Of a DNA stretch of 64,000 nucleotides, positions 3,178-60,188 are shown piece after piece; position 1 is the first letter of the stretch, and each line of letters starts with the position of its first letter. The notes under the pieces were generated by a model, which ran no database searches, was not told where the DNA came from, and was given only the letters and a program-made list of their open reading frames with translations. The DNA comes from an uncultured Rhodospirillaceae bacterium (GTDB lineage: Bacteria; Pseudomonadota; Alphaproteobacteria; UBA9219): assembly GCA_964587125.1 (NCBI GenBank), contig CAZPKC010000006.1, forward strand, positions 7,881 through 71,880, read 5' to 3'. A program made the translations under genes and the position numbers.

Positions 3178-5931
3178 ATGTTTGACCAAATTGATTACGA
3201 CTGCATGACGGCTTTAAGAGAACGGCTCCGCGTTCAAGTTGGGCTAACCCGCCATTATAATGTCAGTTGTTCGACGGGGCGCATTCCCCTTAGTAACGGG
3301 TCAAGTAGCGCTTCTCATTTTCAACCTGAAGAAAATGAAATTCTTCGCTTCTATACCCGCAAAGGAAATAACCACACGCCTCAGTTTCTATTGGCCCCCC
3401 TCACGCCCGAGGCGTTTGAAGAAAGGGTGCAAAACGTTAAGCTGACGACGGCCGGAAAACAACGCGCAGAGATTGTTCGACGCGCGATAAAAAAACATCC
3501 TGAAAATTTTTCGCGGCAAGTCGTCACGGCGTATTCGGCGCTTTATAACGAAATTCTGCCCTCCCGGATTCGGCAAATTACGATCGATTATGAACTTTTT
3601 GCTCCGGAATTTTTGATAGAGGTGCTTCAGGATAAAACCTCCGCAACGCACCAGCTTTTGGGGACAAAAGAGGGAAACGATTTTATTTTAACCCGCTTTT
3701 CGGATGTCCGTACGGCCTGGAAAATCGGGGAAACGCCTTTCGATTTGTTGCATACGACGCCAAAAGGCCCGATTCAGCTCATGCCCTATCGAGGCGACCT
3801 TTCTCCGGATACATTATGCAACAAGTTGAAAGCCGCAGAGATTATCCCGAAATCGGCGCTGAACACTCTCGTGTTTCTTCTTGAAGCTGGGCTTGCGCCC
3901 GTTGGCGGCATGGAACAGGTGCTTTATGCAACCCAAATCAAAGAACGCGTTCTTGAGTGGCTCAAGACTTGCCGCCCTGAGGACCCGCGTATCGACGCCT
4001 TTTCGAAAATCCCGACAGACCGTTCTTATTTCTCCTTATGGGGCGCGTGCTCGGATGATTTATGCGCCCCTGCCTATTACGGGAACGCGTTGCATGATTG
4101 GCGCCTGACCGAAGCAACGGCACGGGATATTATGGACGTGCCGGGATCGATCTCGATGAGCGCTGATTCCATCGTTCTTAACAATCGGTTGCTTTCCTCT
4201 TCCGAAGAATTTCTTGACGAAGAAACGGCTCGCGAAGCGTTCGCCCGTTTGGCTGAAAAAGGAGCTCTTGTTCTTGTGTCGAAACCCTCCTTGAAAAAAC
4301 AAAAGGGAGAGGCTTCTCGGAAATTGCAAGACATCACGGACCCCCTTCTTTCCGGATGCATGGATCGCGTTCTTAGAAAACGGCCGATGTTCGATTTGGT
4401 TCGCCAAGCCAAAACTCTTCGCGATTACGTGAATCCTCTTATGGACTGGACTTTTCAACCTGAAACGTTTCCCTATGCACGCTCCCTTCTGGGGCACATC
4501 GTCAATGAAATCAAAATCTGCTACGGGGATTCCACGGCGCAGGACGTCAAGAAGCAATTGGAGAAGAATTTTTCAGTTGAAACGGGCGTACACGTATCTC
4601 TTCCGCGCACGATGAACCGCCCGGGCAAGCCTTCTTCTCCGATTTTCAACAGCAGCACGCTTTGCTATCAGGCGATCCTTCTTTCCGCGGCGGCACAACT
4701 CACAACGCCGCTTGTTCCAACCGATTTATGGGCACAGGTCATCGACCTATTCCACGGCGTAGATTCGGCCCCTTATAATCCGCAGATTCAGCCTCTGCCC
4801 TCTTTCGTCGATTGGGATAAAATTCGGATCGACAAGAACGATCCGCGTTTTTATGAGAAGCTTGTTCCGCTCGGCCCCTTTTCGCGCTATTTCAGCATTT
4901 TTACGGACGGCATTTACGCGGGCGAACGCGAAACGTCCTGCTATACGCCCGGTGAAATCGAAGGCGCAACGATAACTCCCTTCGTTCGCGAAAGCCTCGC
5001 CGAACGGCTCACGCTTGCAAATATGCTTTTGCCGGAAGGCTATGCTTTTCTGGTATTCGAAGGACACCGTGAAGTGAGGGATCAGAAAACTTTTTTTGGG
5101 CGATTTGCCAACAAACTCTACGAAGACAAGAAAGGAAGTTTTATCGAGGAAAAACAGGGATTCTTGCGTCCCTATACGAAAGAAGACGCTTTTTCCGAGG
5201 CCCAAAAGCATTGGCTACCGCCGGATGCCGAAAATTCGACTCACACGACCGGAGGTTCGCTTGATCTCACCCTTGTTCGCTTCGATAAAAACGACTGGGA
5301 ATGCCTGCAAAAGCTTAATCGGGATCAGCAATATCTCCTTGATCTCGGTTTATCCGAATCCGATGACAGAATCTTCGAGATAGAATTGCAGCGCCATCAA
5401 CTTTTCCGAGAGAAGGCGCGGATGGTGCCGATGGGAATCGTTTTTGACGAAGTTTCTTGGGATGAAAAAGGTTATCGTAAATCAGACCTGCGCTATTTTG
5501 CGGAAAAGAGAGAACGCGAGCCAAAAAATCCCGAGTTTTTGCTAAGCGAGGAGGAAAAGCAGATTGAAGAAAATCGCCGTCTCCTTCACACGATCATGAC
5601 GATCGTCGGTTTTACGCCCGGAGAAAGAGAACTGTACCATTTTGACTTGTGGAACAAACGTTGGGCTACTTCCACAAAAAGCTCCGTTTCCTTTTACGGC
5701 CCCGCCGTTCGTTCACCCGAAAATCTGGAATTCGAGCAATTTCGGAGAGACATTCGCGATCTCAGCATCAAAGCCTCAAATCCGGATTTTGATCCTGCAA
5801 AATTGATCTGGGGCGATTCGATAAGATTTGAGCTTTTACGCCAATACGGATCGATGACAACCGCCAATCTCGACCGCCAGTACCGCGCGGCTTATATTCC
5901 TTCATGTCCGTTGTCCTGTAAAGCGATGTAA
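3178..5931 (+). CDS. 917-aa hypothetical protein. The C-terminal ~350 aa carry a VanX/DdpX-like (peptidase M15D) D-Ala-D-Ala dipeptidase signature. The N-terminal ~550 aa are unrecognised
   Basis: Long ORF in the track. Motifs read: ENSTHTTGGSLDLTLV matches the VanX zinc-site motif S-x-H-x-x-G-x-x-x-D-L-T-L. The downstream ERELYHFDLW matches the E-x-x-H catalytic/His-ligand motif. The upstream LPEGYAFLVFEGHRE resembles the VanX N-terminal GY...D/E-G-YRP region. Confidence 0.6.
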   Translation: MFDQIDYDCMTALRERLRVQVGLTRHYNVSCSTGRIPLSNGSSSASHFQPEENEILRFYTRKGNNHTPQFLLAPLTPEAFEERVQNVKLTTAGKQRAEIVRRAIKKHPENFSRQVVTAYSALYNEILPSRIRQITIDYELFAPEFLIEVLQDKTSATHQLLGTKEGNDFILTRFSDVRTAWKIGETPFDLLHTTPKGPIQLMPYRGDLSPDTLCNKLKAAEIIPKSALNTLVFLLEAGLAPVGGMEQVLYATQIKERVLEWLKTCRPEDPRIDAFSKIPTDRSYFSLWGACSDDLCAPAYYGNALHDWRLTEATARDIMDVPGSISMSADSIVLNNRLLSSSEEFLDEETAREAFARLAEKGALVLVSKPSLKKQKGEASRKLQDITDPLLSGCMDRVLRKRPMFDLVRQAKTLRDYVNPLMDWTFQPETFPYARSLLGHIVNEIKICYGDSTAQDVKKQLEKNFSVETGVHVSLPRTMNRPGKPSSPIFNSSTLCYQAILLSAAAQLTTPLVPTDLWAQVIDLFHGVDSAPYNPQIQPLPSFVDWDKIRIDKNDPRFYEKLVPLGPFSRYFSIFTDGIYAGERETSCYTPGEIEGATITPFVRESLAERLTLANMLLPEGYAFLVFEGHREVRDQKTFFGRFANKLYEDKKGSFIEEKQGFLRPYTKEDAFSEAQKHWLPPDAENSTHTTGGSLDLTLVRFDKNDWECLQKLNRDQQYLLDLGLSESDDRIFEIELQRHQLFREKARMVPMGIVFDEVSWDEKGYRKSDLRYFAEKREREPKNPEFLLSEEEKQIEENRRLLHTIMTIVGFTPGERELYHFDLWNKRWATSTKSSVSFYGPAVRSPENLEFEQFRRDIRDLSIKASNPDFDPAKLIWGDSIRFELLRQYGSMTTANLDRQYRAAYIPSCPLSCKAM

Positions 5932-8385: not shown

Positions 8386-10203
8386 ATGGGTCGTTTGCGC
8401 GGGTTTTCTTTATCAACCAAAACGGGTCTTGTTGCAGTTCTTGTTTCCGTTATATTTGGCATCGCCGTCATCTGCTCGACGCATCTTATCTTAACTTCGT
8501 ACTTACTGGAACACGCACAAAAAGAGGTTGGCTCCAATCTGCGGTTGGCGCGCACCATCGTCGAATGGAGCTATGGAACGAATTATAGCCAAAAAGACGG
8601 TCGTCTGTTCGTCGGAAATCACGCTATCGATAACGATATGAATTTAATCGATCAAATCACCTCCCAGTTTGGTGAAGATGGCGAGGTTATGACGATTTTT
8701 AAAGACGATGAGCGCATCATTACGAACGTCATAGATCCCAAAACCAATTCGCGCGCGATAGGAACGAGGCTGTCCGAAGGACCCGCCTATAATTCGGTTT
8801 TCCGCGAAAAGAAAAAATACGATGGCGAAGCGACGGTTTTGGGAACCACCTATCTTTCGACCTACGATCCCATCTTTGACGAAAATGGAAAGGTCATAGG
8901 CATCTTTTTTGTAGGTCTTAACAAAGCGTCGGAACTTGCCATCATCAAGAAACTCGAAACCATCATGGCCAGCGCGACGGCGTTTATCGCCTTGCTTGTT
9001 GCCGGTATTTTCTGGTCGGTTTCCCGCTTCCAAATGAAGCCTCTTTTAGAAATGGTGGATGTCGTCGAAGGCCTTCGTCAGGGAAAAACGGGGATTGACG
9101 TGCCCTTTCTCGATCGAGGCGATGAAATTGGGAAAATGGCCTTCGCTATCGAAGTTTTCAAAAAAGACATCATCGAAAATGCCCGCCTGCAAGAAGAGCA
9201 AGAAAAAGAAAGAACCGCTGCCGAAAAACGGACGGCGGAGATTCTCCAATTACAGGCGGAGAAGGCAAAAGAGATGGAGGCCAACGAGAAGAGAACGGCC
9301 CAAATCCTCGAACTGCAAGCGGAGAGAGAACAAGAGCTTGCCGCTAAAGAAAAAAGAACAGTGCGGATATTTCAGCTTAACATCGATTTTGAGAAAGCGA
9401 TCGAGACGGCTCTTGATTCGCTTCTAACCGCCCAAACGGACCTGAACGCCACGGCGGGAGCCATGTCGGAGAATGCTTCCGTAGCCATACATACCGTTCA
9501 GTCGGCCGAGGTTTCCGTTCAGGACGTTTTGGCAAACATACAATCTATCGCTTCCGCGACGGAAGAATTGACCTCATCATCCGTCGAGGTTTCGCGGCAG
9601 GGTTCCTATTCGTCTAAAATTGCCATGAGCGCCATAAATGAGGTCGAGGACACCTCTAAAACTATAAACTCTCTGGCGGATATGGGGAAAAAGATCGGCA
9701 GTATCGTCGATATCATCAAAAACATCGCCTATCAGACGCGTTTGTTGGCCCTTAATGCGACGATTGAAGCGGCGCGCGCGGGCGATGCGGGAAAGGGGTT
9801 TTCCGCCGTTGCTTCCGAAGTTAAAACCCTTGCCGCCCAAACGGCAATGGCGACGGAAGACGTTGCTTCGCAAATTGCGCATATACAGGAAACTTCTCAG
9901 TTTGCCGTCGCTGCAATTATGAAAATTCGCACCATAATTAAGGAAATGTCGGAGATATCCGCCGCTGTCGCGGATCATGCGGAAGAACAGGGCTCAGCGA
10001 CGGCGGAAATTAGCCGTAATGCCAGCAGCGTCGCCAAAGAAGCGTCGAAGCTCTTAAACGACATATCCAGCGCGGAAGAATCGACCAACAAAACCGGATT
10101 GTCGTCGGGAAAAGTCTTGTCAGCTTCAATTTGCCTTGGCGCTCAATCCGACGAACTCAACAAAACCGTCAAGGATTATCTGACAAAAATCAGCCAAGCC
10201 TGA
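8386..10203 (+). CDS. Methyl-accepting chemotaxis protein with periplasmic Cache-type sensor, HAMP, internal coiled-coil repeats and C-terminal MCP signalling domain
   Basis: Two TM segments flank a ~160-aa periplasmic domain. Signalling-domain signature [36 protein letters not shown]. Repeated [14 protein letters not shown] units. Confidence 0.85.
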
Positions 10204-10215
10204 CAAAAGACGGGG

Positions 10216-10881
10216 CTATTTTCCGGTCAAGGCCCTATCCGACACGAACGGATTATCTTTGCGTTCTTGCGCAAAGCTTGATGTTTCGCCGTGACCCGGA
10301 ACGAAGTCAACATCTCCCAAAGGCCAAAGTTTTTGCGTGATGGAATAGGTCAAAGCTTCGGGATCGCTGTGCGGAAGATCAGTGCGCCCGATTGAGCCTT
10401 TGAAAAGAACGTCGCCGACTTGGGCAAAATTATTTTCCTTATTGTAAAAAACGACGTGGCCGGGCGTATGCCCGGGGCAATGAATAACTTGCCATGTCGT
10501 CTCGCCAACCGTGACCGTGTCGCCGTCTTCAAGCCAACGGTCGGGATCGAAGGTATCCATTCCCGCAATGCCGTAAAAAGTGGCGTGCTGGGGAATGTTT
10601 TCAACCCAAAAATCGTCGTCTTCGTGCGGCCCTTCGATCAGAGCGCCCGTTCTGGCTCTAAGCTCGCTCGCGCCGCCGCCGTGGTCAAGATGCCCGTGCG
10701 TGATCCAAATTTTCTCGACGGTTAAGCCGCGCTTTTCGACTTCGGCCAGAATTCGATCGACCTCGCCGCCAGGATCGATGACGGCGCATTTTTTCGTCTT
10801 GGCGCAAGCGACGATTGTGCAGTTCTGCTGGAACGGCGTGACGGGAACGATGAAATAATCGAGAGAAGAACTCGTTTTCAT
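10216..10881 (-). CDS. MBL-fold metallo-hydrolase (glyoxalase II-like)
   Basis: THGHLDHGGG metal-binding motif, plus downstream HCPGHTPGH and PGHGETS. The start overlaps the stop of the upstream gene by 4 nt. Confidence 0.8.
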   Translation of the reverse strand: MKTSSSLDYFIVPVTPFQQNCTIVACAKTKKCAVIDPGGEVDRILAEVEKRGLTVEKIWITHGHLDHGGGASELRARTGALIEGPHEDDDFWVENIPQHATFYGIAGMDTFDPDRWLEDGDTVTVGETTWQVIHCPGHTPGHVVFYNKENNFAQVGDVLFKGSIGRTDLPHSDPEALTYSITQKLWPLGDVDFVPGHGETSSFAQERKDNPFVSDRALTGK

Positions 10882-12746
10882 TTGATTTCTCCAAAACGCA
10901 AACGCGTTAAGGCGCGATGCAGAAGGCTCGCGCCGTCCTCCGACATAATGGATTCCGGATGGAATTGAAATCCCATAAAGCGGACGCCTTCCATCGCGAT
11001 AATCCGGTCTGTCTCGTCGATATCGAATTTAATGTCCCCATGCGCCCGCGCGTTCGCGTTGAAGACAGGCGAAAACGAATTATAAAATCCAAGGCGGAAT
11101 TTTTTCCCCAGAAGGTCGACTTCGCGTTGCATGCCCTGCGTCGAATGAATTTGCCTTTCGACATCGATTTTTTTATTTACCGCCAAAGCCTGATGCCCGA
11201 GGCAGATTCCAAGCATCGGTTTCCGCCGTTTTGTTAAATCGCTTATGATCTCCTGCAAACGACGCATGCGCGGATGCGTCATATCTGTCGGATCGCCCGG
11301 ACCGGGCCCAACGATCACAATATCGCTGTCGTCTTTGGACGGATCAAACGCGAGGCTATCCACGACGGAAACTTCCGCCCGCATCGTGCGCAGCATATGC
11401 CCTGCCATGTGCGCGAAGTCATCTTCATTGTTCAAAATCGTTATTTTGACCTTATCAAGGGCAAGCGCGCCCTCGGCATAAGGGTTTTGGCGGTTCATCC
11501 AGAAAGCCGACAGTTTTTCGTTCCTCGCGCGCAAAATGGGCTCGACCTTGCGGCAGAGATCGTCGGTCAGGTACGGTTCTTTAAGCTGGGCCGCGCCCGT
11601 CAAAACGCCCAACAACCCCATCGCTTTCGCGCGGGATTCTTTGGCTTCGTTGTCGGGATCGGAATCGCGCACGATGCCGCCTCCCGCCTGAACGCGAAAC
11701 TTTCCGTCGCCGTCGATCTCCGCGCAACGGATGAGAATAGCGCAGTCCAAATCCCCGTTGGGGATGTCCGTGCGCGGATTTGAATAGATTCCGATTTCTC
11801 CCGCGTAATACCGGCGCGATTCCGGTTCGTATTTGTGAATGATGCGCGCGGCGCTTTCCATAGGCGAACCGACCACCGTCGGCGCATGAAGCGTGCGTCG
11901 CAGAGCCGATATCGTATCGCGCCCCCGACGCCCGACAAGGCGGTATTCCGTATGCACGACCGCGCCGATGTCGCGCAAAAAAGGCCCTTCGACCTCGCCG
12001 CCGTCCGGACAAATGACGCCCATAATTTTCATTTCCTCATCGACGACTTGAAACAGCTCGTTGATCTCCTTGGGGTCGGCGAGGAAACGGTCGAGGCGCG
12101 CCACGAATGTCCCTCGGTCTTCCTTGCGCAAGGTTCCCGCGATAGGAACCATGATTGTTTCGTTGCCGCGGACTTCAAGATGCCTTTCAGGCGAAGCGCC
12201 TATGATAAATTGGTTTTTGGATTTATCCTTCGGGTGAATATTGGCGAAAAGCACGGCCATATACTGGCCGCGCTGATTCAGGATTTTGCGATAGATGCTT
12301 AAAGCGGTTTGGATATCGAAAGCCTCGATAATTCCGGAAAAACGCCGCGCCAGAGTCGTCTGGGAGGCGTTGCCTTTTTCGATCTCGTTTTTCTGAAAAT
12401 CGCGGACGAGATCGGCGTACGCTTTGTCGGAAAGCGATGCCTCGATTTTCCCGTCCCACGCGATTTCGGACCCCGGCAGTTCGCCCGCCAGAGTTTCCGT
12501 CGGGATAGATAAAGCGATTTCGATTTCAAGCGCCAGAATAGGCTCGTCCCCTCGCGCTTCGAAGCCGCGTTCCCTGATGGCGCGGTAAGGCAAGGCAAAA
12601 GCAATATCGCGCCCCGTTTGGCGCGCAAGCTTATGAATGTCGTCGATTTTATCGAGCGCATGAAACGCTCCCTGAGCGCACAATACGCGCCCTTGTTTTT
12701 CGATCAGCGCAAAAGAACGGTTTGTGTTTATGGAATCGAGAAACAT
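10878..12746 (-). CDS. Fused chorismate-utilising enzyme (anthranilate-synthase-like, PIAGT type) with C-terminal class-I glutamine amidotransferase; TrpE(G)/PhzE-like, 622 aa
   Basis: Chorismate-binding domain motifs ASPERHLEV, MVPIAGT (Ala, not the PabB Lys) and GGGIVRDSDPDNEAKESRAKA. C-terminal GATase with catalytic Cys in GICLGHQ. Shorter than typical 730-aa TrpE(G) proteins. Confidence 0.7.
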   Translation of the reverse strand: MFLDSINTNRSFALIEKQGRVLCAQGAFHALDKIDDIHKLARQTGRDIAFALPYRAIRERGFEARGDEPILALEIEIALSIPTETLAGELPGSEIAWDGKIEASLSDKAYADLVRDFQKNEIEKGNASQTTLARRFSGIIEAFDIQTALSIYRKILNQRGQYMAVLFANIHPKDKSKNQFIIGASPERHLEVRGNETIMVPIAGTLRKEDRGTFVARLDRFLADPKEINELFQVVDEEMKIMGVICPDGGEVEGPFLRDIGAVVHTEYRLVGRRGRDTISALRRTLHAPTVVGSPMESAARIIHKYEPESRRYYAGEIGIYSNPRTDIPNGDLDCAILIRCAEIDGDGKFRVQAGGGIVRDSDPDNEAKESRAKAMGLLGVLTGAAQLKEPYLTDDLCRKVEPILRARNEKLSAFWMNRQNPYAEGALALDKVKITILNNEDDFAHMAGHMLRTMRAEVSVVDSLAFDPSKDDSDIVIVGPGPGDPTDMTHPRMRRLQEIISDLTKRRKPMLGICLGHQALAVNKKIDVERQIHSTQGMQREVDLLGKKFRLGFYNSFSPVFNANARAHGDIKFDIDETDRIIAMEGVRFMGFQFHPESIMSEDGASLLHRALTRLRFGEIK

Positions 12747-12748
12747 AC

Positions 12749-13039
12749 CTATCCCCTTGAATCTGAATTATTTTGTTGTTCGGCTTTCTTTTCGCGCATC
12801 CTATATTTCAAACACCGGTAAACGCCATAAAGACTGATAAGCCCCCATGCCAAATTGGAGATAGAAGACGCTATGTTCGGATGGTAGACGAGGGAGAGAA
12901 GGATCATGATCGTCCCCGCCAGATTGATGGCCGAATAACCAAGTTTTTTCACATACTCGCGCTGCCATTGCGCGCGCCCGTATGCGTATATCGAAATTAC
13001 GGCTCCGAGAATCCCCACGGCATCAGGCAAATCCGTCAT
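12749..13039 (-). CDS. Small (96 aa) membrane protein, 2-3 TM, first gene of the operon with the TrpE-G-like gene
   Basis: Hydrophobic segments GILGAVISIYAY, INLAGTIMILLSLVY and LAWGLISLYGVY. The stop is 3 nt before the next gene's start. Confidence 0.5.
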   Translation of the reverse strand: MTDLPDAVGILGAVISIYAYGRAQWQREYVKKLGYSAINLAGTIMILLSLVYHPNIASSISNLAWGLISLYGVYRCLKYRMREKKAEQQNNSDSRG

Positions 13040-13121
13040 TTTCTTAAACCCCCGAACAAAACATGCCTTGCCACGTTACAATTAATCTGTCACCGAGAAT
13101 AGCCTGTATAATACTCCCGTT

Positions 13122-14513
13122 TTGGATGAGTCAAAGCATGATCCGGGTTTTGTTTTCATGAATTCGCCCTTCCCTTCAGAACGGTACGATGCAGATAACG
13201 CTTTCGCGCGCGGCGTCGCTGCCCAAATTAAAGGAGATATAAATGCCGCCGCGCAAGAATGGCGGCGTGCCCTCGTTCTTGCGCCGGAACACGCGCCTGC
13301 GCTTTATAATCTGGCTGTCGCTTCGGCTTTAATGGGGGATGAAAAAGGCGCCGAGGAAAATTATGAAAAGCTTCTGGCTCTGCACCCCGAGCATAGGGAC
13401 GCCCTTTTCAATCTTGCCAATCTGAAAAAACGTCAGAAGCGCGACGCCGACGCCGAAAACCTTATCAGGCGGTTGACAACCGCTCATCCCGATTTTGCTT
13501 CCGGTTGGGTCAATCTGGCTAAAATATATTCGGATCGCGGCGATTTGAAAAACGCGGAGCCGCTGCTTCGCAAGGCCTTAAAGCTCGACCCCTCCCACGT
13601 CGTCGCGCATTGGAATTTATCTCACGTTTTATTGCGTTCCCATTCTTGGGAAGAAGCATGGAAAGAATATGAATGGCGTTTGCAGCTTCCGGGCTGGCTC
13701 AAGCCGCCGGTTTTGGCAAAAGCGTGGACGAAAAACGTTCCGGCGCGACGCATTTTCTTATGGAACGACCAAGGCAGAGGGGACGCGCTTCAATTTCTCC
13801 GTTATCCCCGCCTGCTGGCGGAAAAAGGGCATGAAGTTTGGGTGCTTGTTCAGGAAGACTTGAAAACGATTGCCGCAACGGCGCCCGGCGTGACGGGAGC
13901 CGTCGGCCCCGACGATCCCTTCCCCGAAATCGACGCCGAAGCGCCGCTTCTCAGCCTGCCCTATCGCCTTGGTTTGCCCGATCCACGAAATGCGGGAACC
14001 GCGCCTTATCTTTCAAGCAAAAAGCAGATGTCCCTGCCCCATCGTTCCAAACAGCTTGCTGTAGGATTGGTTTGGGCTGGGAATCAAAAATTCAAAAACG
14101 ACGCCGATAGAAGCGCGCCGCTTTCCTCTCTTACGCCGCTTTTCGAGATCGAGAATATCGATTGGTACAGCCTTCAATGCGGCGACGCGCACGAACAAAT
14201 TCGGGAAAATCGTCTTTCGGACGTTATTCGAGATTTATCGCCGGGCTTAAGAGATTTTTCCGATACGGCCGCCGTTTTGGAAGCGTGCGATATTATCATA
14301 AGCGTCGATACCGCCGTCGCGCATTTGGCCGGAGCCCTTGGCCGCACGTGTTATTTGATGCTTTCAACAAAGCCGGATTGGCGTTTTGCCGACGATGAAA
14401 CGGCGAGCCTTTGGTATCCGACTTTACGCCCGTTCAGGCAAATCCACGCGGGCGATTGGCAAAGCGTTGTGTCCGATATCGCAACCGCGTTGAGAGAAAA
14501 ATTATCACAATAA
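13122..14513 (+). CDS. TPR-repeat protein fused to a glycosyltransferase family 9 (heptosyltransferase-like) domain
   Basis: The N-terminal half has TPR-like repeats (ALYNLAVASALMG, ALFNLANLKK, GWVNLAKIYSDRGD). The C-terminal half has LAVGLVWAGN... and IISVDTAVAHLAGALGRTCYLML, typical of GT9. An alternative start at M13 is possible. Confidence 0.65.
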   Translation: MDESKHDPGFVFMNSPFPSERYDADNAFARGVAAQIKGDINAAAQEWRRALVLAPEHAPALYNLAVASALMGDEKGAEENYEKLLALHPEHRDALFNLANLKKRQKRDADAENLIRRLTTAHPDFASGWVNLAKIYSDRGDLKNAEPLLRKALKLDPSHVVAHWNLSHVLLRSHSWEEAWKEYEWRLQLPGWLKPPVLAKAWTKNVPARRIFLWNDQGRGDALQFLRYPRLLAEKGHEVWVLVQEDLKTIAATAPGVTGAVGPDDPFPEIDAEAPLLSLPYRLGLPDPRNAGTAPYLSSKKQMSLPHRSKQLAVGLVWAGNQKFKNDADRSAPLSSLTPLFEIENIDWYSLQCGDAHEQIRENRLSDVIRDLSPGLRDFSDTAAVLEACDIIISVDTAVAHLAGALGRTCYLMLSTKPDWRFADDETASLWYPTLRPFRQIHAGDWQSVVSDIATALREKLSQ

Positions 14514-14550
14514 AAATCGCCGCACCGATAAATATCGATGCGGCGATTTT
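14513..14550. terminator. Bidirectional intrinsic terminator hairpin between convergent genes
   Basis: aaaatcgccgca-ccgataaatatcga-tgcggcgatttt: 11-bp stem, A-run and T-run on the two sides. Confidence 0.6.
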
Positions 14551-14564
14551 GAAACGATCACGAC

Positions 14565-17519
14565 TTACTGATTAATTCCGTCAATGCCGCAAGGCGTAAC
14601 TTCATTGCACTGAATAAGCGGCGTGATGCCCGCGTTTCCAGCCCCGCCCGCCTGAGGCGACAGTTCGGCAAGAGAAGTCGGGTTATCGCCGCCCGCATGA
14701 GGCGACAAATCAGCCAAATTCCCGCCCGTGGTCTCTCCGCCGCCGCCGTTCACGATCGAAAGAAGCGTGCCATAGGGTCCGTTTCTGTTGAAGTTATGAG
14801 GAACGTGCTCAAGCACGTCGCCGATGTCCAGAGGATCAACCGTCAACGTGCCCGGGACTATCGTAATAGTGTAGCCGTCGGGATTAGTCGCCACTGTGGC
14901 GACCGCGCCGATGTCAGGATAAGCACCCACGGGCGCCGGAGGCGGCGATCCCGCCGACGTTATATTACTAAAGGTCGGCGGCGTTGTAAGGAAGACGCCG
15001 AGATAAGCGCTCGGATCATAAGCGGCCCCGCCAATCGTATAGCTCGACGTAAAGCCATCGCTCGCCACGACCGACGTGTAGTCTTGCCCGAAAAACTTGG
15101 TCAGATCGTTGAAGGTCACGGTAAGAGCGGGCTCGACGGCGAAGACGTAACGGTCGCCATCGACGGTAATGCTGGTGGGATAAACGGTGTCCCAAATGGC
15201 CGTATTCCCGCTATCGAGGTTGCCGAATACGTCCGTCAGGGGACTGTAGCTATAAACCAGCCAGCGTCCGTCCAAAGCGGTGGGGCTTGCATTATTATTG
15301 ATGAAGTCGCCGTAGCTGTCGGCAAGCGTCACGGACGTTCCTTCTGCCGTGCTATTGACGCCGCCGTTTGCGCCCAGAGTAATGCTTCCGGCTCCGATGC
15401 TCGCGTTCCCCGCAAGAACCTCCGCCAGAAACACGCTGTTGCCCATCGTTTGCATGCCGTTAATTTCGATGCTGCCGGTGTCGTTCAACAGGTTCACGTT
15501 CGTTTGCCAAGTATAGCCGTTGGCCGTGATCGTTCCCGAATCGCGGAAAGTGTTGCCGACGGTAATGCTCGCCGCTTCGGAATTCACATCGCCCAAAACG
15601 GTATTTGTCAGTTGAAGGGTGATGGGGTCGCCTTCGTTATTGAACGCTTCGTCCGCCGGCGATCCGCCGACGCCGATGTTGGTGCCCGACGTAAGAGGTT
15701 CGAAGAAAACGTCTCCGGTTGTTTCTATGGTAGCCGTATTGTCCATGCTGATCGTGTCGGTCACGAAGACGATGTTTCCGCTGTCCCCTACACTGCCGAT
15801 CGTGGCTCCGTCGGTCACGACGATACCGTAATTCCCGTCGCTCGCGAGATTATCTCCGCCGCCGATGCCGACGATCTTGATATTGCCGCTCGTCGAAAGA
15901 ACTTCCGCGTCGGACGTTATGAAGACGCCATAGTTGTTTCCGCTAGGAGAAACATCGCCAATGCTTTCGACAGCGGCAACGAAGTCTTCGCTATCGCTGA
16001 CAGAAACATTTCCACCTTGGCCGAAGATTTTGACGTTGCCGCTATTCGAATAAACTTCCGTGCCACACGTCAGATAAACGCCATAGTTGTTTCCACTGCC
16101 AAAACCGCTGCCTGCGCCTCCGCCGATGCCAACGATCTTGATGTTGCCGCTATCCGATGAAACGACGTCGCCGCTATCCGATGGGACATCCGCGCCGGGC
16201 GGCGTTATCATAAAGACGCCATAGTTGTTTCCGCTGACATTGGCAGCGTCTTGACCGCCGCCTTGGCCGAATATCGAAATCTTGCCGCTACCGCTTGTCT
16301 CGACAACAGAGGCGTTGGCCAACTCGACGCCGTAATCGTAACCGGCCACAAAGGAAGATGCCCCGTTATATCCCGTGCCGGAGATGGAAATGTTCCCGCC
16401 GTTGCCCGCATTAAGCGTGGCGTCGTTAAGATAAACGCCGGCCGTATAAGAACTGTTGCCCTGACCGGCAAGTTTGATGTTTCCGCCGTTCGTGACAATG
16501 GACGAACCCGGATCCATTTCGATCGAGCCGCCGCTCGCCTTAACGCTGCCGTCATTGGTCGTAATGGACGAACCTGCGCCCATATCGATGGAGTTGGCCG
16601 TCAGAACGATCTGGCCGTTTACGGTTTCGACGTTTTCGGCCTGAACGATGCTGTCCAGATTGATCTGGCTGTCGACGACGGCCTCGGCTGCGGACGCCGT
16701 CAATATGACTTGGCCGCCGTTGGAATTGATCGTGCCTGTATTTTCGACCAGCTGATCCTTGATATTTCCGCTGGCCGTCATGCTAAGAAGCCCGTCGCCA
16801 TAAAGATCGACGGAAGTAGCCGTATCGCCGGAAGCAAGAATGACTGTGCCGACATTGGCGTTGATCGTGCCATTATTGACCACTTCAGGAGCGACAAGCG
16901 CGACAAGCCCGCTCGATGTTATCGTGCCGTTATTCGTGACGGACGCAGAGCCGTTGCCGCCCGGCGCAAAGGCGAACGTATTGGTCGTAACATTGGGATT
17001 GAAATTCGAAGAACTGATCGCGCTCGCCGTTGCGATCAAGCCGCCGACGCTGACGGTCGAACCATTTTCAAACGTGATGCCGTTGCCGTTAGCCAGAATA
17101 AGCGTGCCGTTCGGATCGCTGATCTTGCCGAAAATTTGCGAGGCGCTGTTGCCGCCAATTTGGGCAAGAGTCACCATACTTGAAGCAGTAGATTTGTTAA
17201 CAAAATCGACCGTAGCGCTGGAGCCGACGTTGAAGCTCAAAAAATTGATAATCGCGCTGGCTGAGGTTTGTTTGATCGTTTCGGTAACGGTAGGCTTCAA
17301 AATGGTACCGCCGAAGCTGTACCCCAAAGAGGCGTTGCCGCTGGAAGCAATGTTGCTCGGAGTAAGGATCTTGGTTGGAACGGGCGTCGTGAGCGCGGGA
17401 ACCGCTGCCAACGCGGAAGAAACGAACGCCGGATTGATAATGCAAACGGCGGTCAAAAGGCCAGCTATGCTGCTGGCAAATTTCTTATTGTGTTTTTTCG
17501 TCATAGCCGAGTCTCCCAA
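14565..17519 (-). CDS. TpsA-type exoprotein (filamentous-haemagglutinin-family N-terminal TPS domain) with repetitive beta-helical body
   Basis: Signal peptide, then a TPS-domain-like region (ISDPNGTLILANGNGITFENGS, resembling the NPNGI motif). Long G/S/N/T-rich sequence with repeated GNNYGV(Y/F) and SGNIKI(V/F)G(I/Q)GG units. Confidence 0.7.
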   Translation of the reverse strand: MGDSAMTKKHNKKFASSIAGLLTAVCIINPAFVSSALAAVPALTTPVPTKILTPSNIASSGNASLGYSFGGTILKPTVTETIKQTSASAIINFLSFNVGSSATVDFVNKSTASSMVTLAQIGGNSASQIFGKISDPNGTLILANGNGITFENGSTVSVGGLIATASAISSSNFNPNVTTNTFAFAPGGNGSASVTNNGTITSSGLVALVAPEVVNNGTINANVGTVILASGDTATSVDLYGDGLLSMTASGNIKDQLVENTGTINSNGGQVILTASAAEAVVDSQINLDSIVQAENVETVNGQIVLTANSIDMGAGSSITTNDGSVKASGGSIEMDPGSSIVTNGGNIKLAGQGNSSYTAGVYLNDATLNAGNGGNISISGTGYNGASSFVAGYDYGVELANASVVETSGSGKISIFGQGGGQDAANVSGNNYGVFMITPPGADVPSDSGDVVSSDSGNIKIVGIGGGAGSGFGSGNNYGVYLTCGTEVYSNSGNVKIFGQGGNVSVSDSEDFVAAVESIGDVSPSGNNYGVFITSDAEVLSTSGNIKIVGIGGGDNLASDGNYGIVVTDGATIGSVGDSGNIVFVTDTISMDNTATIETTGDVFFEPLTSGTNIGVGGSPADEAFNNEGDPITLQLTNTVLGDVNSEAASITVGNTFRDSGTITANGYTWQTNVNLLNDTGSIEINGMQTMGNSVFLAEVLAGNASIGAGSITLGANGGVNSTAEGTSVTLADSYGDFINNNASPTALDGRWLVYSYSPLTDVFGNLDSGNTAIWDTVYPTSITVDGDRYVFAVEPALTVTFNDLTKFFGQDYTSVVASDGFTSSYTIGGAAYDPSAYLGVFLTTPPTFSNITSAGSPPPAPVGAYPDIGAVATVATNPDGYTITIVPGTLTVDPLDIGDVLEHVPHNFNRNGPYGTLLSIVNGGGGETTGGNLADLSPHAGGDNPTSLAELSPQAGGAGNAGITPLIQCNEVTPCGIDGINQ

Positions 17520-17746
17520 ATTTCAAACGCCGAATATGGATTAACAGATTATTGATGCACAATGAAGTCTTAATGTTTCTTTAGCAACAGAAAAAAATAC
17601 TTTCACCCCTCCTGTGTACGGGAAAAATGTGGGAATTTACCCGTTTTTCCCCGAAAACTCTTGTTTACACACGGTTTTTAATCCTATACACTTCCGCGTC
17701 GCTGTTTGGTCTCGAAAATCGACTTTTATGCCGAAGGGAAAATCCG

Positions 17747-60113: not shown

Positions 60114-60188
60114 TGGTGCCGATTGTGTGATTCGAACACACGACCTACCGCTTACAAGGCGGTTGCTCTACCCCTGAGCTAAATCGGC
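60114..60188 (-). tRNA. tRNA-Thr (anticodon TGT)
   Basis: The reverse complement reads GCCGATTTAGCTCAGGGGTAGAGCAACCGCCTTGTAAGCGGTAGGTCGTGTGTTCGAATCACACAATCGGCACCA. It folds as a cloverleaf with anticodon loop CTTGTAA, T-arm GGTTCGAATCC-like and encoded CCA. Confidence 0.85.

Follow-up and report, generated by a model that had tools for sequence, protein, structure and literature searches.

A PhzE-type fused enzyme of an uncultured Rhodospirillaceae bacterium is probably an anthranilate synthase for tryptophan synthesis

A 64,000-nt stretch of contig CAZPKC010000006.1 from an uncultured Rhodospirillaceae bacterium (assembly GCA_964587125.1; hereafter the window) was analysed around a gene for a 622-aa protein in which a chorismate-binding domain and a glutamine amidotransferase (GATase) domain are fused in one chain. 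With a probability of roughly 0.7, this fusion is an anthranilate synthase for tryptophan (Trp) synthesis on a PhzE-type scaffold. Judged from sequences and gene contexts, its product would be anthranilate rather than 2-amino-2-deoxyisochorismate (ADIC), and would be used for Trp. The fusion and its clade, which is mainly alphaproteobacterial and has no curated model, are most likely fused anthranilate synthases, a type already characterised in Streptomyces venezuelae. The first-pass annotation of the same DNA had proposed a pathway other than Trp biosynthesis. This proposal was not borne out: orthologues were found in trp operons without trpE or trpG, Trp leaders were found upstream of orthologues, the fusion carries TrpE-like residues, and a trpF gene was recovered that probably belongs to the same genome.

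The gene neighbourhoods of fused homologues were surveyed with one genome per GTDB species. The resulting 80 loci each included as much as 10 kb on either side, and 46 of them came from the clade of the window fusion. When all flanking open reading frames (ORFs) were clustered, tryptophan genes were the only recurrent functional neighbours. In locus L051, whose fusion protein is 66% identical to that of the window, overlapping or abutting genes were arranged as trpB-trpA-fusion-trpD-trpC-trpF, without trpE or trpG, and its TrpD, TrpC, TrpB and TrpA passed the curated NCBIfam cut-offs. The order trpD-trpC-trpF-trpB-trpA-fusion was present in L022, L027 and L040, and trpB-trpA-fusion in L017, L020 and L023; in L042 the fusion gene came first and was followed by trpD/C/F, trpB and trpA. 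The orthologues in trp contexts were 44-66% identical to the window fusion. The closest examined relatives of the L051 TrpD outside its own subclade (P0279 and P0280) were located in canonical trpE-trpG-trpD-C-F-B-A operons, indicating that the fusion fills the anthranilate-synthase slot in L051. The fusion thus seems to have replaced the former anthranilate synthase genes in the L051-type operon. In contrast to the window clade, phzE genes are found beside phzD/phzC, as in the Streptomyces locus L083 with its isochorismatase and 3-deoxy-D-arabino-heptulosonate 7-phosphate (DAHP) synthase genes. A tblastn search for a PhzD-like isochorismatase found none within 10 kb in any genome locus examined, including 46/46 clade loci, and none in the window; the positive control, L083, was recovered. 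Moreover, no isochorismatase, PhzF/G, nonribosomal peptide synthetase (NRPS) or other biosynthetic genes recurred among the flank clusters near the fusion, and no recurrent pabC or folate genes were found there.

Short Trp-rich ORFs were observed about 100 nt upstream of stand-alone orthologues in the sister group of the 13-leaf clade around the window fusion. The peptide MIKLWWRWQ was encoded in both L014 (531-560) and L015 (708-737), with synonymous changes between the two and diverged flanks. The corresponding leader ORFs were MLKLRWRWQ in L016 and MVSLCWRWRRSFLNQ in L012, both about 100 nt upstream of the fusion gene. In L042 the leader ORF MINYISWWWDISEPWLS (9875-9928) was followed by a hairpin and a U8 terminator directly before the operon. 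Folding of the L015 leader predicted pairing between the Trp codons and the stretch immediately ahead of the start codon (z = -4.1); L014 gave a similar result (z = -2.6). ORFs with at least three Trp codons occurred in 1.5% of shuffled upstream regions. From their sequence, these leader ORFs look like classical Trp-sensing leaders, that is, uncharacterised trp attenuators of Micavibrio-like Alphaproteobacteria, indicating that the stand-alone orthologues are also tied to tryptophan supply. Alphaproteobacterial TrpE(G) is typically encoded by a stand-alone gene with a Trp-rich leader peptide upstream (cf. S. meliloti trpL/trpE(G)), and a trpE(G) gene apart from the other trp genes is usual in this class. 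The WW-containing ORFs upstream of the fusion in L017 and L020 were rejected as leaders, being inside the trpA coding region.

Some further features of these loci were recorded. L094 (182-7486) and its relatives, the source of the closest examined non-clade relatives of the L051 TrpD, carry canonical trpE-trpG-trpD-trpC-trpF-trpB-trpA operons that end in a DAHP synthase gene (DAHP_synth_1), and in L010 a DAHP synthase gene lies directly downstream of the fusion gene. L042 is OY760177.1, a 1.93-Mb chromosome labelled Candidatus Gracilibacteria, with a complete trp operon that is under leader control and has the fusion as its first gene. Neither the size nor the gene content of this chromosome is usual for such a label. 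Under genetic code 11, the trpD region of L042 is split into ORFs of 103 aa and 643 aa, and an alternative code or a frameshift might explain this.

A trpF gene could also be linked to the genome of the window itself. In L021, whose fusion is 73% identical to the window's and falls in the same tight clade, a bona fide trpF, scoring 255.6 bits (cut-off 216), was located at a distance of 10 kb from the fusion gene. A search with this TrpF returned P0392, another bona fide trpF product (254 bits, cut-off 216), encoded on contig Ga0455670_0000951 of JGI metagenome 3300041809, which also contains the window contig as Ga0455670_0001600. The tetranucleotide correlation between this trpF locus (L090) and the window was r = 0.983; for reference, chunks of the window gave 0.944-0.982 against the rest of the window, and the closest relatives gave at most 0.967. 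L090 keeps the trpF-EAL-...-LpxB synteny of L021, and its proteins are 54-66% identical to those of L021, a level comparable with the 57-73% identity of the window proteins. The trpF contig thus very probably belongs to the genome of the window, suggesting that this genome uses anthranilate for tryptophan.

The domain order of the fusion, with the chorismate-binding domain N-terminal and the GATase domain C-terminal, and its PIAGT motif with Ala had been described in the first-pass annotation, and both agree with the Pfam matches and the codons checked here (Table 1). In the alignment, residues common to the fusion and to E. coli TrpE and PabB include E187, G204, T205, K226, E230, H265, G293 and E307, and further R311, D334, R340, E367, E370 and K374. 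Having the domain together with these Mg2+ and substrate residues, the fusion can be assigned by sequence to the menaquinone/siderophore/tryptophan (MST) family of chorismate-utilising enzymes. The columns of Cys515, His596 and Glu598 were conserved to at least 93% in all three classes of fused proteins described below, and the class-I GATase triad (TrpG/PabA type) of the fusion is intact.

The best PDB match by far was PhzE of Burkholderia lata (3r74, E 7e-90, query residues 47-615 against chain residues 69-632), followed, with E-values from 1e-21 to 1e-18, by DhbC, a 4-amino-4-deoxychorismate (ADC) synthase and TrpE. The fusion was 34% identical to PhzE, 39% to the Streptomyces L083 homologue, 25% to E. 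coli PabB and, over the chorismate-binding domain only, 29% to E. coli TrpE. PhzE (3r74-3r76) and the fusion are both single chains of about 620-640 aa in which a short N-terminus leads into an MST domain, and some 45 linker residues bearing the motif RNxxL/IxxFW connect this to a C-terminal GATase domain; both also have LPYRxxxERGF, GPGPGDP and the catalytic triad. The alignment likewise gave a PhzE-type layout, with LPYRxIRERGF, the linker and GPGPGDP as common motifs and without the N-terminal insert of about 90 residues found in TrpE. The full-length match to 3r74 fixes the fold and, with this alignment, upholds the PhzE-like size and layout noted earlier. In the regions of TrpE feedback control (LLES and NPSPYM motifs), the fusion has FALIEK aligned with LLLESA and GQYMAV aligned with SPYMFF, and it does not have the roughly 90 residues that TrpE carries between the two. 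The fusion is also about 107 residues shorter than the 729-position profile of Rhizobium-type TrpE(G) (NF010081), in line with the earlier estimate of about 100 aa below canonical alphaproteobacterial TrpE(G). Its residues 177-610 aligned to profile positions 304-714, and the shortfall was N-terminal. The TrpE(G) proteins of Rhizobium and Azospirillum (NF010081/TIGR01815, about 720-730 aa) resemble the 622-aa fusion in domain order and presumed function. They differ from it in about 100-125 N-terminal residues that it lacks, including the large insert after the LLES region.

The fusion has more than 100 full-length, non-redundant homologues with at least 50% identity and lengths of 610-640 aa. 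Almost all came from metagenome-assembled genomes (MAGs) labelled Alphaproteobacteria, Rhodospirillaceae, Micavibrio or Bdellovibrionales, the last probably mislabelled. At JGI the clade is named 'phenazine biosynthesis protein PhzE / 2-amino-4-deoxychorismate synthase', and at NCBI 'chorismate-binding protein' or 'anthranilate synthase family protein'.

An alignment of 212 sequences, comprising fused homologues with E. coli TrpE, E. coli PabB and B. lata PhzE, split the fused proteins into three classes by motif. The window clade (63 sequences) always had PIAGT and AG[G/A]G, like E. coli TrpE (PIAGT, AGAGVV). The PhzE class (PhzE and 92 others) had PISGT and xG[A/S]T, with Ser and Thr in 100% of the 93. 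The third class, from actinomycetes, myxobacteria and a Cloacimonadota MAG, had PI[C/S]GT and SGxS. Only four columns divided the window clade from the PhzE class (63 against 93 sequences): Q129/N, A203/S, Q233/M and G357/T. With Q, A, M and G in these columns, E. coli TrpE matches the window clade at three of them. Where PhzE has Asn, Ser (PISGT) and Thr (VGSTLV), the fusion has Gln129, Ala203 and Gly357 as in E. coli TrpE. According to PMC5906492, in a passage that cites Li et al. 2011, the only first-shell residues reported to distinguish PhzE from anthranilate synthase are Ser217, Ser368 and Thr369. Of these, Ser217 and Thr369 align with columns 203 and 357, and at the Ser368 position the fusion has Gly356 and E. 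coli TrpE has Ala. None of the three PhzE first-shell residues was therefore found in the fusion, which carries Ala203, Gly356 and Gly357.

In the tree, the window fusion fell in a 13-leaf clade (bootstrap 98), whose sister group included L051 and the leader-bearing loci, and trp-linked loci were distributed over at least five sublineages, including the deepest (L042). The window clade together with E. coli TrpE and PabB was separated from the PhzE class and the third class with a bootstrap of 75. As arguments against its own non-Trp proposal, the first-pass annotation had named firm clustering within housekeeping TrpE(G) and the same three-gene arrangement as sole anthranilate synthase of all relatives. 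Roughly half of this was observed: the fusion does not fall within classical TrpE(G), yet it is apparently the trp-pathway anthranilate synthase of its clade.

In published accounts, PhzE forms ADIC from chorismate without eliminating pyruvate, and its homologue Lim6 makes ADIC with a little anthranilate (PMC5958127). That paper describes the difference between PhzE and anthranilate synthases as unexplained, with 'no indication in the protein sequences'. On the basis of the features above, the following mechanism can be proposed. The scaffold would comprise a short N-terminal region, the MST chorismate-binding domain, the linker and the C-terminal TrpG-like amidotransferase. The Cys515-His596-Glu598 triad would hydrolyse glutamine, and the ammonia would pass internally to the chorismate site and add at C2 with loss of the C4 hydroxyl, giving ADIC. 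Unlike PhzE, the fusion would then eliminate pyruvate and release anthranilate, which TrpD, TrpF, TrpC and TrpBA would convert to tryptophan. In this organism the fusion gene would have become separated from the other trp genes. It would now share a local transcription unit with genes for a housekeeping glyoxalase II of the YcbL/GloC type and a small CBU_0592 membrane protein, neither of them involved in the reaction.

The fused TrpEG of S. venezuelae is about 620 aa long, PhzE-like and under trp attenuator control. It is, like the window protein, a single-chain TrpE-TrpG fusion, and its anthranilate synthase activity has been demonstrated (Ashenafi et al. 2015, as cited in PMC5958127 and PMC5897657). 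The chromosomal homologues of Streptomyces examined here (L050 and L058), on the other hand, belong to the other class with PICGT, SGxS and Asn129 and are 38-39% identical to the window fusion. The window clade would thus be at best a sister lineage, found mainly in Alphaproteobacteria-like MAGs.

The genes next to the fusion were compared across the same clade loci. The three tightly packed minus-strand genes of 96, 622 and 221 aa were confirmed (Table 1). Contigs of about 108 kb in ENA and JGI, which come from a single environmental sample set, bear gene calls for the same trio; the genes are therefore genuine rather than chance ORFs. Between the fusion gene and the 221-aa metallo-beta-lactamase (MBL) fold gene there is an overlap of 4 nt (ATGA) as described before; the gap between the stop of the membrane protein gene and the start of the fusion gene (GGA TAG GT ATG) is 2 nt, not the 3 nt given earlier. 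The 221-aa protein has a Lactamase_B domain at residues 15-197 (E 4e-36) and matched the Salmonella hydroxyacylglutathione hydrolase YcbL (2xf4) over its full length (E 1e-69, residues 8-215 against 2-210), at the common size of about 210-220 aa. It is by similarity a YcbL/GloC-type glyoxalase II, which sustains the glyoxalase-II-like assignment made before. With the equivalog model of the longer classical GloB (TIGR03413), it scored 93.8 bits, below the cut-off of 200.8. The 96-aa product scored 68.6 bits with NF047864 (CBU_0592 membrane family; cut-off 25).

The first-pass annotation had described the trio as a three-gene operon, but the neighbourhood comparison did not show it to be a conserved module. 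The MBL gene adjoined the fusion gene in 8/46 clade loci (L003, L004, L005, L007, L009, L011, L013 and L021), all with a fusion protein at least 73% identical to the window's. It was not adjacent in 4 of the 12 close-relative loci (L006, L008, L010 and L026) or in any of the 34 more distant clade loci (at most 66% identity). The membrane protein gene was upstream of the fusion gene in only 3/46 loci (L003, L004 and L009). This shallow adjacency and the housekeeping YcbL match indicate that the trio is a young local arrangement and not a conserved pathway unit, and the MBL and membrane protein genes are probably incidental neighbours rather than pathway partners. A scan of window positions 9900-13400 for promoters and terminators gave nothing above shuffle expectation, and Rfam returned no riboswitch, T-box or leader in the window. 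Two tandem MBL-fold paralogues of about 246-254 aa and 218-237 aa follow the fusion gene in L005 (about 11.9-13.3 kb) and L021 (11881-13301); the second L021 copy shares 73% identity with the window MBL protein, and the first 57%.

Table 1. Positions of the gene trio and of domains and key residues of the fusion in the window
Feature	Coordinates	Strand	Evidence
96-aa membrane protein gene	12749..13039	minus	CBU_0592 family, NCBIfam NF047864; PF26604 on called gene
622-aa chorismate-binding + GATase fusion gene	10878..12746	minus	ORF list, Pfam, PDB 3r74
221-aa MBL-fold hydrolase gene	10216..10881	minus	Lactamase_B, PDB 2xf4
Chorismate-binding domain, residues 108-374	11625..12425	minus	Pfam Chorismate_bind PF00425, E 5e-44, profile 3-257 of 257
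GATase (TrpG-like) domain, residues 437-613	10908..11438	minus	Pfam PF00117, E 8e-23
Gln129	12360-12362	minus	codon checked
PIAGT motif, residues 201-205, with Ala203	12138-12140 (Ala203 codon)	minus	codon checked
AGGGIV motif, Gly356/Gly357	11676-11681	minus	codons checked
Cys515, catalytic triad, in GICLGHQ	11202-11204	minus	codon checked
His596, catalytic triad, in FHPES	10959-10961	minus	codon checked
Glu598, catalytic triad, in FHPES	10953-10955	minus	codon checked

Several observations weigh against an anthranilate synthase for Trp. As the first-pass annotation had correctly stressed, the setting is not that of a tryptophan operon: no trp genes were found within the 64-kb window, and none in about 7 kb beyond its start. 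The trpF is the only trp gene tied to the probable same genome, by composition and synteny, and no Trp-rich small ORF was present upstream of the window fusion gene. The best NCBIfam equivalog score of the fusion was 130.4 bits with NF010081, against a cut-off of 645; TIGR00564 gave 116 bits (cut-off 518) and TIGR01815 109 bits (cut-off 739). With the models of classical TrpE, PabB, isochorismate synthase (ICS) and salicylate synthase, the scores were 46-118 bits, the cut-offs being 225-739. The fusion reached none of the curated TrpE, PabB or ICS cut-offs, and its clade is outside the coverage of any curated model. Moreover, PIAGT and TGAGIV also occur in a solved ADC synthase, that of Stenotrophomonas maltophilia (4grh), which so shares the PIAGT and AGxG signature of the fusion, indicating that Ala in place of Lys does not alone exclude PabB-type chemistry. 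The first-pass reading of this motif as Ala and not the PabB Lys stands, but its use to exclude a PabB type is too strong, and residues alone do not decide the product. The third class was also found in trp contexts despite its Asn129 and Ser357 (a trp operon in L079, trpBA in L053, WWW leaders in L049 and L064). The tree was made by neighbour joining only (588 columns, 100 bootstraps), and its internal support was weak, for which reason only coarse statements were drawn from it.

The same facts leave room for other functions. The enzyme could be a true anthranilate synthase whose product serves a use other than Trp (signalling or quinolone-type), the Trp pathway having been lost as in Micavibrio aeruginosavorus ARL-13. 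This strain was reported to lack almost the entire Trp pathway (PMC3189940), and many homologues of the fusion came from Micavibrio-labelled MAGs. Among the best 120 homologues, one MAG was labelled M. aeruginosavorus (P0057, with a stand-alone fusion gene) and no entry appeared to correspond to the cultured Micavibrio strains; by this weak inference the ARL-13 report neither supports nor contradicts the use of anthranilate for Trp. With the L051 TrpD as query, no clearly clade-specific TrpD was recovered for the window subclade, but this result is uninformative, the TrpDs of the group sharing only 33-40% identity. Given the trpF in L021 and on the same-metagenome contig of matching composition, a non-Trp use of anthranilate is quite unlikely.

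It is very unlikely that the fusion makes ADIC (or anthranilate) for a specialised metabolite together with the coupled MBL hydrolase, which might act by thioester or enol-ether hydrolysis, and the membrane protein. The PhzE-type architecture, the JGI 'phzE' label, the 4-nt overlap with the MBL gene and the lack of trp genes in the window would fit such a pathway, as would the adjacent MBL gene in 8 close relatives, two of them (L005 and L021) with tandem MBL paralogues. However, this adjacency was absent from 4 members of the tight clade and all 34 distant members, the MBL protein is a full-length match to the YcbL glyoxalase II, and trp genes rather than isochorismatase, PhzF/G or NRPS genes recurred around the fusion. 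The PhzE residues Asn, Ser and Thr are, moreover, replaced by Gln, Ala and Gly of TrpE. The least likely function considered is that of a fused PabB-PabA ADC synthase of the 'PIAGT' type, making p-aminobenzoate for folate. The ADC synthase 4grh, which has the same signature, was the third-best PDB match (E 1e-20), and the fusion gene stands alone in the window. Against this function, orthologues were placed in trp operons otherwise without an anthranilate synthase and behind leaders with Trp codons, the neighbour clusters held no recurrent pabC or folate genes, and the full-length likeness to C2-aminating PhzE types is far above that to PabB (25% to the E. coli protein).

Given that trp-linked loci were found in two of the classes, the third-class fusions may also be anthranilate synthases. 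At residue 357 (Thr369 of PhzE), the trp-linked classes had Gly or Ser, whereas the ADIC synthases had Thr. If both trp-linked classes release anthranilate, this residue would be the sole consistent separator from the ADIC producers, an idea that is tentative and, on balance, doubtful. If true, it would provide a natural contrast within the same architecture, could explain why PhzE stops at ADIC, and would indicate a trp-pathway origin of phenazine-type ADIC synthases. Third-class genes (L048-L082) were also seen in some Holosporaceae-labelled MAGs, and several of them follow WWW or W-rich leader ORFs; examples are L079 (full trp operon, 9926-16200), L049 (leader about 150 nt upstream), L064 and L071/L073.

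An assignment of the window fusion as anthranilate synthase for Trp would affect how related genomes are read. If the JGI 'phzE' label is taken at face value, phenazine-type metabolism would be wrongly predicted, and the genomes would seem to lack an anthranilate synthase, that is, to be Trp auxotrophs. The annotation thus matters for metabolic reconstruction of Micavibrio-like predatory or host-associated Alphaproteobacteria. The clade would also be a comparator to PhzE on the same scaffold, with four class-specific positions at which the missing pyruvate elimination of PhzE is testable by mutagenesis. For the locus itself the result is deflationary, as nothing points to a new pathway in which the MBL hydrolase takes part.

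Other features were observed in and near the window. A class-II-like DAHP synthase gene lies 11 kb from the fusion gene, and its product is 37% identical to the PhzC-like enzyme of Streptomyces L083. Genes for an aminotransferase and a GTP cyclohydrolase II lie beside it, the trio being located at 23988-25370 (-), 25498-26715 (+) and 26716-27282 (+). Pfam matches identified a two-partner secretion (TPS) pair, comprising a 984-aa TPS-domain exoprotein with Gly/Ser/Asn-rich repeats (14565-17519, -) and a ShlB/POTRA_2 transporter (17627-19501, +). The only Rfam match in the window was one tRNA gene (60117-60188, -; 74.8 bits). About 6-7 kb beyond the window start, an RVT_1 reverse transcriptase gene and a bAvd gene were found (L088 1-903, contig k141_1748652), which suggests a diversity-generating retroelement. 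Two ORFs of 917 and 919 aa without Pfam match (window 3178-5931 and L088 6412-9171) could be targets of this retroelement.

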